Below are positions 40,436-49,700 of a stretch of 64,000 nucleotides of DNA, piece after piece; position 1 is the stretch's first letter; every line of letters starts with the position of its first letter. The translations under genes and the position numbers were made by a program. The stretch is from Meyerozyma guilliermondii (Eukaryota). The notes beneath the pieces are model-generated. The model was given only the letters and a program-made list of their open reading frames with translations, made no database searches and was not told where the DNA came from. The stretch is from positions 372,001 to 436,000 of the forward strand of contig CP128815.1 of the NCBI GenBank assembly GCA_051546255.1, in the 5' to 3' direction.

Positions 40436-41119
40436 ATGCAATACACCGTTTTATCTGCTTTGGGTTTGGCTTCTATGGTCGCCGCTAAGTCCACCATCAC
40501 TGCCGTCGACACCGTCACCGAACACCATACCACCGATGTCACCGTCACCCACTGCTCGCACGACGCTTGCTCCACCACCGTCCAGGCTCACACCCAGACT
40601 GTTGTCACCGAAACCGTCAATGGTGTCAAGACCGTTTACACCACCGTTTGCCCTCTCACCGAAGAGGCATCCACCGTGGCCCCCGCTTCCACCTTGGCTC
40701 CGGCTTCCACTGTTGAAGAAGAGATTGTGACTGCCACCCTCACCACCACCGTCAACGGCGAGGAAACCGTCTACACCACCGTGTGCCCTGCATCTGAGCT
40801 TCCTGCCACCACTGCTCCTGGCTCATCAGCTCCAGCCACTACTGCTCCTGCTCCTGGAACTAAGGCCCCAGTGCCAGCTCCTGCTGAAGAGTCCGACTCG
40901 GATATCACCTACGTCGACGTCACCGAGACTCCTACCGTCTACGAGACCACCGGTGTCGAGGCCACCATCACCTCTCAGGCCACCCTCACCTCGTACTACA
41001 ACTCTGCTGCATCCAATAGCACCGTTGCTGGTGTTAACACTTTCGAGGCCAAGGCTGCTGGCCAAAAGGCTATGCTTGGTGCTGCCGGATTTGCTGGGTT
41101 GGCTGCTGTCTTGTTGTAG
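40436..41119 (+). CDS. GPI-anchored Thr-rich cell wall protein with flocculin type-3 repeats (Pga59/Pga62-like)
   Basis: Signal peptide, repeats T.TVNG..TVYTTVCP, hydrophobic C-terminal GPI signal; strong codon bias; ATG at 40436. Confidence 0.88.
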   Translation: MQYTVLSALGLASMVAAKSTITAVDTVTEHHTTDVTVTHCSHDACSTTVQAHTQTVVTETVNGVKTVYTTVCPLTEEASTVAPASTLAPASTVEEEIVTATLTTTVNGEETVYTTVCPASELPATTAPGSSAPATTAPAPGTKAPVPAPAEESDSDITYVDVTETPTVYETTGVEATITSQATLTSYYNSAASNSTVAGVNTFEAKAAGQKAMLGAAGFAGLAAVLL

Positions 41120-43182: not shown

Positions 43183-44787
43183 CTACTCAAACTTGATCTT
43201 CTTCGCCGTCTTGGTCATGTCGACGTCTTTGAAGAATGCACCGTAAGCCAGATGGCTTTTTTTCTTGGTGTGACCGCCAAACTTGAGCAACTCATCGGGC
43301 ACTGGCTGACCTGCTCCTCGCAAAACATTCATCAATGCTCCACTCAAGTGTTTTTCGTGCTCGGTGAAAAGGGTGTGTGCAATACCTGTCTGGCCCGCGC
43401 GCCCAGTACGGCCGATACGATGCACATAGTCCTCCACGGTAAGTGGGAAAGTCAAATTTATCACCACTTTGACATTGGGAATATCCAAGCCTCTGGCAGC
43501 AACGTCGGTGGCCAAGAGAAGATTCGAGTCGCCACGCTTGAACGAATCAAGTGCAGAAGTTCTTTGCTGCTGCAGCAAGTCGCCGTGGATGGCTGCAACA
43601 TTGAACCCGGAACGACGCAACATGGCTTCCACTCTGGTGGCTTCTTTTTTGTACAAGGCAAAAACCAAGATTTTTTGGTCCGAGCCATATTGCCTCAACA
43701 ACTGGAGCAATCGGCGCTCTTTATCACGAGGATCCATCACCTCCACTGTCTGGGTAATCCGCTTATTTGCAGCCAATTCGTCCCGGTTTCCAATCGACAC
43801 CTTGACGGCTTTGTTCATGAATGTTGCCGCGAGCTCACGAACTTCTTTGGGCCAGGTGGCTGTGAACATGAGTGTCTGTCTTTGCTTGTTGGTGCATCCA
43901 ATGATGTTTTTGATATCTTCTTCAAAACCCTTTTCCAACATTCTGTCGGCTTCATCAAGTACAAGATAGTCAATTGTGCTCAAATCCACCGCCCCGTCGT
44001 TGAGAAGATCCACCAATCTTCCGGGTGTTGCAACTACAACACTGGCAGTCTTCACCGCCTTGATCTGCTGGTCTTTGGGCACTCCTCCATAGATAGCCAC
44101 ACAAGTGAGTCCACAGTTCTTGGTGAGCATGGTCAAGTTGTCGTAAATTTGAAGCGCAAGTTCACGGGTAGGAGAGATACATAAAACCCGAAGGCCCTTC
44201 TTGTTGTCGGTGATGATGTTGTTGATGGCAGGCACTCCAAATGCAAAGGTTTTTCCCGACCCGGTCTCGGCAACTCCGACTACATCATCACCATTGAGAA
44301 GATACGGCCAAGAAGCAGATTGAATAGGAGTTGGTTTGGGAAACTTCGTCACTATAGGTGCTATCTTCAGCTGGAGCTGGACATGGTCGAACGAAAGAAT
44401 TGGTCTAAACCCAAGTTTGTGAGGATCTTCAACGGTAACCTCGTTGGTCTGGAGAAACTCATCGATTTCGCTCTGAGGAAGCGCAGTCAATTCCGCGGCC
44501 TGGGTATATCCTGAAGAAGAGGACGACACGGTAGAAACGGTAGAGTCAGTCTCTTCAGTCTCTTCAGTCTTTTCCTTCTTCGCCTTCTTCTCCTTCTTCT
44601 CCTTCTTCTCGTTCTTCTCCTTCTTTTCTTTCTTTTCTTTCTTTTCTTTCTTTTCTTTCTTTTCTTTCTTTTCTTTCTTTTCTTTCTTCTCCTTCTTTTC
44701 CTTCTTCTCCTTTCCCTTCACCTCATTGTCGTGCTTGGGCTTCTTCACCTCCACATCGCCAGATTCGTGCTTTCTTTTGGAACCCAT
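43183..44787 (-). CDS. DBP3: DEAD-box rRNA helicase Dbp3
   Basis: KKE repeats, [23 protein letters not shown]-terminal [22 protein letters not shown] at 44787. Confidence 0.95.
44571..44712 (-). repeat. Coding 9-nt tandem repeat (KKE)n in DBP3
   Basis: AAGAAAGAA/AAGAAGGAG units in tandem. Confidence 0.9.
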
Positions 44788-44797
44788 GCTACACAAT

Positions 44798-44813
44798 AAA
44801 TTTTCAGCTCATC
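44798..44813 (-). promoter_or_regulatory. RRPE and PAC ribosome-biogenesis motifs upstream of DBP3
   Basis: AAATTTTCA (RRPE) immediately followed by GCTCATC (PAC, reverse GATGAG). Confidence 0.6.
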
Positions 44814-45192
44814 TCATTTGCAGCGATGTGCAGTAGGGGCGCCGCACTGGCCGCGGCAGACAACCTATCAGCTCGACATAAGGCTTATGGTCAATTCCAT
44901 TGCCAATCACTTCTGAGGTCTTGAAAATCTCCTGAAACACAAGGTGCAACACCGAATGGCAGCTGAAACTGATTCCGCGGCGATAAGCTTCATTTTGAAC
45001 TATTTTGGCAAAAGTGCCTTGGCTGCGAAACATTGTCGATGCTCAAATAGGCAATTTTTTCACCTTGACGCTTGCATTTGACATGCACTGAACCTTCAGC
45101 ACGAACCATCCAGTGTGTGTCTATACGTCACGAAGGGTATAAAAGAGCAGCTACCCTCCTCTAAAATCATTATCAAACAAACAACAACTACA

Positions 45193-45309
45193 ATGGCCGC
45201 TCAAACTACTTCCACTTCCGCTTCCACTCAAGCCGAGACCAGAGACAACAGAAAGGTTGTCAAGCATGTTAGAAGAGGGTACCCAGCTCACTACTGTGTT
45301 ATTGCTTAA
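45193..45309 (+). CDS. MFA1: a-factor mating pheromone precursor (38 aa, CAAX)
   Basis: MAAQTTSTSASTQAETRDNRKVVKHVRRGYPAHYCVIA; C-terminal CVIA, DN processing site, A/C-rich leader, TATAAAA at 45138. Confidence 0.85.
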   Translation: MAAQTTSTSASTQAETRDNRKVVKHVRRGYPAHYCVIA

Positions 45310-46020
45310 CTAAAAGTCGATGTGATTGAATTTTAAAAAATATATAAAAACAAAAAAAAATATTTCTATTTAGTCAATAAAACTAAAAAGACACAGTGTA
45401 GCGATAGGACAAGAGAGATTGAAAAGAATTAAAGTGTATAAAATCGAGTTCCGAGATCTGAGGAAAGCTTTCAAATCAATTCTACAAATCGAAACACTAT
45501 AAGAACAGATAGGTGATTATTAGAAGTACGAGAATATGTCAAAAAGAAGATTTTCAGTTCCGGTCCACATTTGGCCATTTGGTTCACTTTGCCCATTTCT
45601 GGCCACTCGGTCACTCGGTCACATCCGGTCAGTTTGGTCCACTCAAGATCCGGTCGCATCCGAGGGACCCCTCATGCACTCCACATTATGTCGCGTTCGA
45701 GCACGCGCAACCGATCAAAAACGGTGACCTCAAAACGTGGAGGTGGGTCACCGCAACGTGGTCAGCATCATGACCACAACCAAATTTGGCATTGATGCGC
45801 AACAATGCATTGTGATCGAAACCTGACTCTTTCGAGCAAAAGGTGTCTCATTGGCAAGGGTCGGATTGGTGGATGCGTCATTTGGTACCATAGTAGTTCT
45901 CTCGTAGCTAAAGTGGAATCACCGAGAATTCTCGTGTTCTCAAACTCTCAAATTCTCGAATTCTCTCATAGACACAATCTCCAGTGCTTGCTCCTACGTG
46001 GTCATCATCGATTTACTATG

Positions 46021-46437
46021 CTACTTTCTCCGTTTCTTGTGCTTGTTCTTGTTTCTGTACGCAGCGTCAGACTTGAGTTTCTCGGCAAAAACCACAGATT
46101 GGCCCAAATCAGCATCCTCGTGTTGGGAACGCGCCTTTTTGTTACCCTTTGGAGACTTGGTCCCCGTTCTTACCTCGGGCAATCCCACATTTGATCCCGG
46201 GCATTCGACTCCCATTTGCGCCGCCTCAGCATACAGAAGCTGGCGGCAACTAATATCAACAAAAGCATCCTCCAGGTCGTTCATCGACACGTTCAAAAGC
46301 TTCACGCCCGCCCCGTCCAGCTTCTGAACAGGCATGGTGAAACTGGTGGGCACATCTTCCGCCCTCAATGGCTTATCATTGCCGGAATCTTTACGCTTGA
46401 ACCAAGGCACCACAAATGATGGAAACGACTTGTACAT
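46021..46437 (-). CDS. Hypothetical protein (~138 aa), basic C-terminus
   Basis: Open frame from ATG 46437 in an otherwise gene-free interval; no recognised family. Confidence 0.35.
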   Translation of the reverse strand: MYKSFPSFVVPWFKRKDSGNDKPLRAEDVPTSFTMPVQKLDGAGVKLLNVSMNDLEDAFVDISCRQLLYAEAAQMGVECPGSNVGLPEVRTGTKSPKGNKKARSQHEDADLGQSVVFAEKLKSDAAYRNKNKHKKRRK

Positions 46438-46723
46438 TAGTGCGGATGCAACTAGTGGAATAGGTTGAGAAAAAATGTCGAAAACGACGCCCAACCTTGT
46501 TGTAAGAAATAAACAACGGTATTAAAGAAGAACAACAACCTTATCGGTGCCACAAAAGCGTGGGCTGCGGGTGGAGCATGCAGGGAAACGTGTGCTGGCG
46601 CGATAAGGAAACGACTGTGAGCAACGCTTATGTAAGCGATAAGAAAACTCCCGCTTACGTAACCAACTACGCCTTTTTATGTAACACCACCAAAGTTCGC
46701 GATTCATCAACATCACCTCTACA

Positions 46724-49700
46724 ATGGAGGGGTGGGAAGAAGTAAGTATTCTCGCAGCCATTGTGGCTCAAAACTAACGCCAGCTATACCTGTTTCCGGC
46801 CTCGAAGGACCCGGTGACTTCCCTCCTCTTTGATAGTGTTCATAACCTTTTATGGTGTGGTGACTCTCTGGGTCTGGCTCGTTCATTTACACCCAACGCA
46901 GGTTATCCTTTCCAACTTTATCCTTATACGAAATTCCCTGCCACTACGCTGCCACTTCCGGTCGTGCAGCAGCGCAACCATCTGCGTGGCATACTTTCGC
47001 TTCTGCAAAATTGTGTCAATCTCAATTCTCGTCGTGGACTTTCTCAGGCCACTTTTACGGCGGCTTCGGTGACGGATTCGGCCAATGTTTTGCGTAATTT
47101 GTCATGTATGACGACTCTAGGGACCGGCAACGACATAATTGTGGGAGGAACTCACTCACTTGGTAGCCTAGATATGCAAAAATGTGTTGCAACTGGTTTT
47201 GACCACAGTGGAAATTTATCGTTTGTGGACTCTGTGGCCAAGACTTTGGTGTTGGGAACCACAGATGGGACTGTGGAGCTCTTTGATACCGCCAGCAACT
47301 CCAGCGTAAAATCTTTTCCTGCTCATTCTGGCTTGTTAAGCGATATGGCGGTGCAGGGAAACTACATAGCAACATGCGGTTATTCGGCCCGCCGACGATA
47401 CGACCACAAGAATTCTTCGGCCGCAGGCGGCACCTCGTACATCACAGATCCGCTCGTGCATCTTATCGATACTCGCATGATGAAATCGCTTTCACCCATT
47501 CCTTTTCCCAATGGGGCCTCGTTCGTCCGCTTCCATCCTAAGCTCCCCAATATAGTCATAGTGGCCTCCAGCACCGGCGTGCTTGAGTTTGTCGATATAT
47601 TTGACCAGCTGAAATTGAATGTGTATCAAGTGAACATGTCGCCGGCATCGCCAGGAATCTCGCGAATGGAAATTAGCGACAATGGAGAATATATTTGCTG
47701 CAGCGAGGGCCGTCTGCTTCATCTTTGGTCGTTTACCAGCGATACCAACTTTGTCAACTTTCCTGCACCGCTCGAAGAGCAAGATATACCAGCACCACTT
47801 CCGCCGCCTTTTGAGGTCGACGATCCCGTCCCTTTGTCTTCGGTAGGAATGCCCTACTACAAGGACTACCTCCTCTCCAACTATGCCACAGACATGGTCT
47901 TCACCAAGGAGCTTCTGAAGGTTCCTGCTGAAGTGGACACTAGCCTCGGTCATGGTGCATTTGTACCATACGACAGAACTGCGCACGGACCACGAAACAT
48001 TTCGCAGCCATACCAATCTCTACGGGAGCCCCCAGGAAGCAACAGCAACGCTCCCAGATTCATCAGTGAACGGGACGGCGAGTCTAACGAAAATATGATC
48101 CACGCTGAAAATTCCATCTTCCATCTCAAATCCCCCACCTCGGTGCCACATTGCTACTCACGGCTCCAGATCCAGTACTCCAAGTTCGGGGTGGATGACT
48201 TTGATTTTGACTACTACAACAAGTCGAACGGAGCATGTAGTGGGCTTGAAAACCACCTCGACAACTCGTACACCAATGCACTTTTGCAATTGTACCGTGC
48301 TGCTCCGGCATTTTACAATTCTGTGGTGGAGTCCTTGCTTCCCGAATACTTGCCCAATGGACCCGAAATCATCCTGTGGAACCCCCAGGGCCTGTCTTTG
48401 CTCATAGAATTAGGCTATCTTTTTGACATGATGCACAAAGCCGAGGGCCGCAATGTCAAAATCGCCAATTTTTCCCAGCTATTAACCCAAAGTGCAAGTG
48501 CTGCTTCCGCTGGAGTCATCAATACCGACGAAGAGAAAAGTCTTAATGCCGATGGTCTTCGGGAAATCATTATTCGATTCAACCATTACCTCTTATCTGA
48601 GCTCACCAGCAACCAACGAGAGAGACGCCATACAAATTCGGAAAAAATCGAAGATATCATGGGTATCAAACTCGAAATGCAAATCAAGAGCCAGTGCACT
48701 GAAACGGAAACACATACGGGATCGCAATTGATTTTTGATTTGACCAGTCCTCCCGAACAGTACTTGAACAAACTAGCAATGCTTCGTCGAGCGGAAAAAA
48801 CCGAGATCACCATATTATCTTATATGGACTATTTCATGGACCAGTACAAACTGGCGTCGTGCAGAGAATGTGAAGCACGAGGAAGACCCCATGCTGTCAA
48901 TGCCAGACAGCGGGTTGTTCGTTTACCAAAAGTATTGCTGATCAACTTGAGTATGACCAATTTTGAGCTCCAACAGATCCACAATTGTCGCGGATGGCTC
49001 GTTCCTGAGTTTCATATCGGCGAAGATGAGAGGTTTGTCGACGCTGGAAGGGGTCGCAAGTACGAACTTTTGGGATACGTTTGTGAAATAAGTCATGGTC
49101 CGGGTGTAAAGCGCGGAGCCCACAATCTTGTCTCGTTTGTCAAAATTAAAGGCCAATGGTATCTTTTCAATGACTTCTTGGTCATGCCCATTGCACAAGA
49201 AGAAGCACTCAATCTTTCATACTCGTGGAAAAAACCCGTGATTATAGTTTACAGCGAACCAGGCCAGGATTTTCTGTACTTTGAAACCTCAACTTTCAAA
49301 AAGATTCAGGACCTCGACACCTCCATCATATACAGAGACCACTTTGTACGAGCCGCCAGAGAGGGCCATCGCCAAGAGTACAAGCTCCTTACGAAACAAG
49401 AGGCACCCGAAATTGGAACCCTAATTGCTATCGATGCGGAATTCGTAGTTTCGGAACCTGAGCAGTTGGAGATACGATACACTGGTACACGGAAGCTTAT
49501 CAAACCCAAAAAGTTGACGTTGGCTCGAGTGTCGGTGCTTCGAGGGAACGGACCAAATATAGGTGTCCCATTTATCGACGACTATATTGTATGGACCGGC
49601 CACATTGAAGACTATCTAACCAGCTTTTCTGGCATAGAACCTGGCGATCTTGATCCTGAAGTGTCTAAGAAAGCATTAGTGACGCTTCAAACCGTTTACC

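Follow-up and report, generated by a model that had tools for sequence, protein, structure and literature searches.

In Saccharomyces cerevisiae, the a-factor precursor is farnesylated by Ram1/Ram2, loses its terminal VIA, is methylated by Ste14, is trimmed by Ste24 and Axl1 and is exported by Ste6 to elicit a response through Ste3 (Heistinger et al., PMC5993090). The precursors encoded by MFA1 and MFA2 measure 36–38 aa, end in a CAAX box and carry the tripeptide KDN before a mature part of 12 aa. In Komagataella phaffii, compared here by description, MFA1 and MFA2 were unannotated short ORFs of 40 aa with predicted cuts after EDN/ADN and mature peptides of 17 aa, and the two copies were validated by deletion and synthetic peptide (PMC5993090). 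Candida albicans, also compared by description, possesses a single, MTLa-specific MFA1 gene (orf19.2164.1) with a precursor of 42 aa and belongs to the same family as Meyerozyma guilliermondii. The Metschnikowiaceae are another family of the order Serinales; by description, their a-pheromones have a conserved CVIA end (Lee et al. 2018 as cited in PMC12359140) and are often encoded in several copies (PMC12359140).

Across the Debaryomycetaceae and Metschnikowiaceae, a-factor candidates were reported for 70 of 91 species, and conservation of the mature part above that of the leader was described as a pattern of a-factors (Srikant et al., bioRxiv 10.1101/2021.09.28.462209). The cut typically, but not obligatorily, follows an N that precedes an aromatic or uncharged residue. 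Mata2-Mcm1 sites were described in related yeasts for STE2, AXL1, ASG7, BAR1, STE6, STE14 and MFA (Britton et al., bioRxiv 10.1101/565234).

Here we describe a short ORF that very probably encodes the a-factor precursor of M. guilliermondii and is apparently the only gene of this kind in the species (from here: MFa). It is located in a stretch of 64,000 nucleotides that was analysed as a whole (from here: the window). The ORF consists of a single exon and encodes 38 aa with the translation MAAQTTSTSASTQAETRDNRKVVKHVRRGYPAHYCVIA, followed by a stop codon. The initial annotation had pointed to a 38-codon ORF with an MAAQ start, the tripeptide RDN at residues 17–19 and a CVIA end, all of which are borne out by the translation. 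The length below 100 aa, the CAAX-stop end and the D-N before the mature part are shared with MFA1/MFA2 of S. cerevisiae, as are RAM1, RAM2 and AXL1- and STE6-like genes for processing and export (PMC5993090). Different from S. cerevisiae, the mature part is predicted to comprise 16 aa, is basic and has a charged residue after the Asn, one copy was found, and the regulation looks like a2-Mcm1 activation rather than alpha2-Mcm1 repression (bioRxiv 10.1101/565234). The coordinates of the gene and its putative elements are compiled in Table 1.

Table 1. Features of the MFa locus, in window positions; offsets are relative to the start of the ORF
Feature	Position	Strand	Basis
MFa, candidate a-factor precursor ORF	45193..45309	+	translation and homolog P0044
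N-terminal leader, residues 1–19, Thr/Ser-rich, ends ETRDN	45193..45249	+	homolog comparison; presumed removal by Ste24, then Axl1
Predicted mature peptide, residues 20–35, ends in Cys for farnesylation/methylation	45250..45297	+	15/16 identity; presumed N-terminal boundary, uncertain
CVIA-stop CAAX box	45295..45309	+	identical in homolog P0044
CATTG-N6-Mcm1-like site CATTGTCGATGCTCAAATAGG, −162; likely MTLa2-Mcm1 a-specific activator element	45031..45051	+	pattern and matrix; name a2-Mcm1 partly assumed
TGAAACA, putative pheromone-response (Ste12/Cph1-type) element, −260	44933..44939	+	motif match
TGAAACT, near match to pheromone-response element	44964..44970	+	motif match
TATAAAA box, then A/C-rich leader without upstream ATG, A at −3	45138..45144	+	sequence
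Yeast 3′-end-like elements (TATATA, A-run, AATAAA)	45341..45381	+	consensus match only

By itself, the CAAX-stop motif is at chance level genome-wide: the pattern TGYRTNRTHRYNTRR, which covers C[VIM][VI][VAITM]-stop ends only, matched 80 sites in the genome versus 93 for the reversed control. After removal of 20 sites ending in TGG and of four repeats of one tandem copy, 56 sites were read, of which nine close long frames, 30 lack an ATG and 17 have one. Eight of these 17 ORFs encode 15–70 aa, and the a-factor ORF is the only one among the eight that has both a TATA box and the CATTG-N6-Mcm1-like site of Table 1. Taken as a whole, the ORF exceeds chance. Its codons are optimal in 34 of 37 positions against 19.3 expected from the 23 window genes (P = 1.6e-7), scored with what we take to be the optimal codons, a bias like that of highly expressed genes. 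In codon optimality it ranks at the top of the 188 intergenic ORFs of 20–60 aa in the window. Throughout 400 kb of blind genome sequence, 3 of 4122 short ORFs had a fraction of at least 0.85 optimal codons, none of the three ending in CaaX, while the six short ORFs with a CaaX end did not exceed 0.55.

When 1.84 billion representative sequences were searched with phmmer, the sole match was P0044, a protein of 35 aa from one contig (E 4.5e-9). A word-index search with the ORF extended by four in-frame upstream codons returned no homolog, and a search with the alignment of the ORF protein and P0044 nothing beyond P0044; of two pattern scans of metagenome DNA, one gave no match and the other four, all of them out of frame. 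The last 16 residues of P0044 are identical to those of the a-factor ORF, CVIA included. In the comparison with this one homolog, 9 of 19 leader residues are identical (with a 3-residue gap), 15 of 16 in residues 20–35 and 3 of 3 in VIA (Fisher p = 0.004), i.e. the mature region is more conserved than the leader, as described for a-factors.

An Asn is present within the interval of 5–20 residues before the Cys, and a cut after this N19 would release a product of 16 residues with five K/R and no D/E, which the initial annotation had called unusually cationic. The 16-aa mature peptide proposed in the initial annotation is plausible because conservation steps up at N19|R20. The cut site itself is unproven, since the Asn, which had been called conserved, is a His in the homolog and since the next residue in MFa is a charged Arg, both being atypical; P0044 has KDH at this position, and its only Asn is located 21 residues before the Cys. 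We regard the 16-mer as the somewhat more probable mature product, the remaining probability falling to a shorter one, such as the 13 residues fully shared with the homolog. A tentative and rather doubtful proposal is that Meyerozyma a-factors are cut at non-canonical Asp-Asn or Asp-His sites followed by Arg-Lys, with an Axl1-like peptidase that would need no Asn and would yield a strongly basic lipopeptide, and that RAM1 has become part of the a2-Mcm1 regulon. If this were true, pheromone screens based on the Asn would overlook the P0044 gene and others like it.

Upstream of MFa, a CATTG pentamer is combined with an Mcm1-like site; this arrangement, which recurs in the STE2 promoter, is presumably the a2-Mcm1 element known from a-specific genes of Candida. 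The pattern CATTG-N6-CYNAWNNNGG, derived from these two sites, matched 46 positions in the genome, 40 of them inside ORFs of at least 120 aa; the six outside belong to the a-factor ORF, STE2 and an AXL1-like M16 peptidase (at −71), with three unexplained. Further genes, chosen beforehand, were then examined. The STE6-like exporter has a site with one mismatch at −198, which is lacking in all 11 of the remaining ABC genes, though for one of these just 174 bp of upstream DNA were available, and RAM2 has a site with two mismatches at −101. No promoter site of this type was found for BET4, and the matrix score of the STE3 promoter was low (5.2).

Using a matrix trained without the candidate, the site of the a-factor ORF scored 17.4, above all 141 non-training promoters in the set of 145, the highest of which was that of RAM1 (17.3). 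Its leave-one-out score of 18.6 was reached by none of 178 blind promoters, and the scores of STE2, the AXL1-like gene, STE6 and RAM1 were likewise matched by none of the 178, while the weak site of RAM2 was reached by 32 of them. Strand and spacing are common to the sites of the a-factor ORF, STE2, the AXL1-like peptidase, STE6, RAM1 and, weakly, RAM2. This points to a promoter element common to a-specific genes in a test that is partly circular and not fully independent, because the pattern was drawn from the candidate and STE2 and the RAM1 locus entered the promoter pool by matching a related pattern. Such promoter motifs alone have been reported to separate poorly across yeasts (86% vs 76%). 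The TGAAACA-type motif further upstream corresponds to the Ste12 motif in the cited literature.

Some observations on further promoters were made along the way. RAM1 (G000:C4 ~1,100,960–1,102,300, minus strand; L021) has its strong a-pathway site 48 bp before the first ATG, and the gene is not among the a-specific genes given above from Britton et al. (bioRxiv 10.1101/565234). A search for BAR1 covered 15 aspartyl proteases (L107–L121), none of which has a site with at most one mismatch; the best matrix score among 14 of their promoters was 10.2. Since no aspartyl protease promoter has a strong site, BAR1 was not found in this set; it is missing, divergent or otherwise regulated. Two of these proteases show peculiarities, L119 having a pair of TGAAACA elements (−158 and −146) and L118 an internal stop.

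MFa is located between a DEAD-box helicase gene on the minus strand (43183–44787), which we take to be DBP3, and, further on, PAN2. The PAN2 frame is identical in 977 of 977 positions to M. guilliermondii A5DAD0, and the products of five further genes of the genome are exact matches to named proteins of M. guilliermondii. The family implied by the initial annotation, Metschnikowiaceae, was wrong, since this species is placed in the Debaryomycetaceae. For five of the genes looked up, the 90% protein clusters also contain proteins from an assembly labelled Naganishia cerealis at NCBI. Naganishia cerealis is a basidiomycete, and the record is probably contaminated or mislabelled.

Other elements were noticed in the window. 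In the region 46724–46783, PAN2 has an apparent canonical 42-nt intron (GTAAGT ... AACTAAC ... CAG) after six codons, into which the A5DAD0 model runs by seven residues, implying a 21-nt intron; because the model reads into this intron, the N terminus of A5DAD0 may be mis-annotated. Between MFa and PAN2, the minus strand has a frame of 138–166 aa (46021–46521) whose C terminus is basic and which matches no Pfam family; it may be an exon of a gene that is unannotated or contains introns. Short imperfect intergenic repeats, (C/A)TCGGTCAC / TTTGGTC / ATCCGGTC, occur downstream of MFa at 45560–45650, and a protein of 227 aa that contains flocculin type 3 repeats, likely a cell-wall protein, is encoded at 40436–41119 on the plus strand.

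RAM1, RAM2, STE6-like, AXL1-like and STE3 genes are present in the genome with open frames. The STE6-like exporter bears the UniProt name 'alpha-factor-transporting ATPase', and the AXL1-like M16 peptidase resembles insulin-degrading enzyme in its N-terminal part and may be AXL1 or STE23. At the mating-type locus (G000:C5 254,000–262,000; L145–L146), PAP-OBP-PIK are followed by an intron-split HMG-like frame, the exon pieces of which were confirmed by neither Pfam nor PDB search. A MATalpha HMG (alpha1) match was not found in the genome, which is a weak negative. The HMG-like frame after PAP-OBP-PIK together with the lack of an alpha1 match suggests that the strain is MTLa.

For the transcription, modification, cut site, export and activity of MFa we infer the following course. 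In MTLa cells, the a2-Mcm1-type element, aided by the pheromone-response element, would turn on MFa along with the genes for the receptor Ste2, the Ste6 exporter, the AXL1-like peptidase and the farnesyltransferase (RAM1, perhaps also RAM2). The precursor would be farnesylated at Cys35, lose VIA and then be carboxymethylated, and its N-terminus would be trimmed, most likely after residue 19. Ste6 would then export the peptide, which would activate Ste3 on alpha cells.

The identification of MFa as an a-factor gene, as it had been proposed, very probably holds because of its codon bias, the conservation pattern towards the homolog, the promoter site shared with a-pathway genes, and the TATA box, Ste12-type element and A-rich leader. 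Three other explanations were weighed. It is improbable that MFa, as a true a-factor gene, has further copies beside it or is itself a minor copy, the main pheromone being encoded elsewhere, with another CAAX type or with an intron. The CAAX types covered by the genome scan would let such a gene pass, intron-containing genes would escape it, and relatives are reported to use CTIV or CVIV, often in multiple copies (PMC12359140). However, a protein search of the strain's own 10.66-Mb genome at E ≤ 10 gave one match, MFa, and the other three intergenic motif sites show no CAAX ORF downstream on the same strand (first 80 residues, ORFs of at least 25 aa).

Still less probable is a small prenylated protein that serves a different purpose, for instance a membrane-anchored cationic micropeptide, in place of a mating pheromone. 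The strongly basic C-terminal half, the Arg in place of an uncharged residue after the Asn of the presumed cut and the homolog devoid of the Asn would fit such a protein. Searches by Pfam, word index and phmmer returned no direct match to a validated a-factor: the ORF protein matched no Pfam family at E ≤ 0.01 (one unrelated DUF reached E 0.06), and the PF08015 Pheromone HMM matched neither this protein nor P0044 at E ≤ 5. In the ESM Atlas, the top match for both proteins was a cluster of 34 aa with PF08015 Pheromone assigned to 22% of it (score 0.81), which is no more than a lead. Against a different function stand the promoter site common to STE2, the AXL1-like gene, STE6 and RAM1, the length and conservation pattern as described for a-factors, and the 56 CAAX sites read, among which there was no better candidate. 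A chance ORF with a CAAX end is hardly credible: genomes contain 100–700 CAAX candidates of this kind, the motif is at chance level here, and the a-factor site sits in an intergenic promoter region shared with the divergent DBP3, adjoining an RRPE-like element, so that the upstream elements could be those of DBP3, but the codon bias and the conserved homolog oppose this, the site is oriented to the ORF as in five pathway genes, and PAC- and RRPE-like elements belonging to DBP3 itself are present at 44798–44813 (by what we take to be the consensus of these motifs).

The gene seems to have been missed by annotation, as had been supposed. No exact copy of the MFa protein occurs among 15 billion sequences, which is not proof, as three of the four neighbours tested are present there but DBP3 is absent too. 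In the CGOB table of added genes, MFA1 is entered under C. dubliniensis and C. albicans WO-1 only, not under M. guilliermondii (PMC3649674 Table S1). No paper naming MFa of M. guilliermondii was found in the literature within reach, which did not extend to some supplements. The locus is nevertheless likely to be listed in published supplements already, because Srikant et al. have candidates in 70 of 91 species.

The initial annotation had taken an intact copy as support for retained mating capacity. This adds little, since mating of M. guilliermondii has already been reported and an intact a-factor gene says little on mating, because a-pheromone genes that look functional have been retained in a lineage that probably does not mate (PMC12359140). 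What is known of the sexuality of M. guilliermondii is unchanged by MFa. The species is an opportunistic pathogen and an organism of biocontrol and biotechnology. MFa fills a gap in its annotation, the predicted peptide is a ligand for Ste3 that can be synthesised, and the gene is a knockout target for mating genetics. Moreover, the shared promoter site sketches an a-specific regulon in a species that is described as lacking alpha2.
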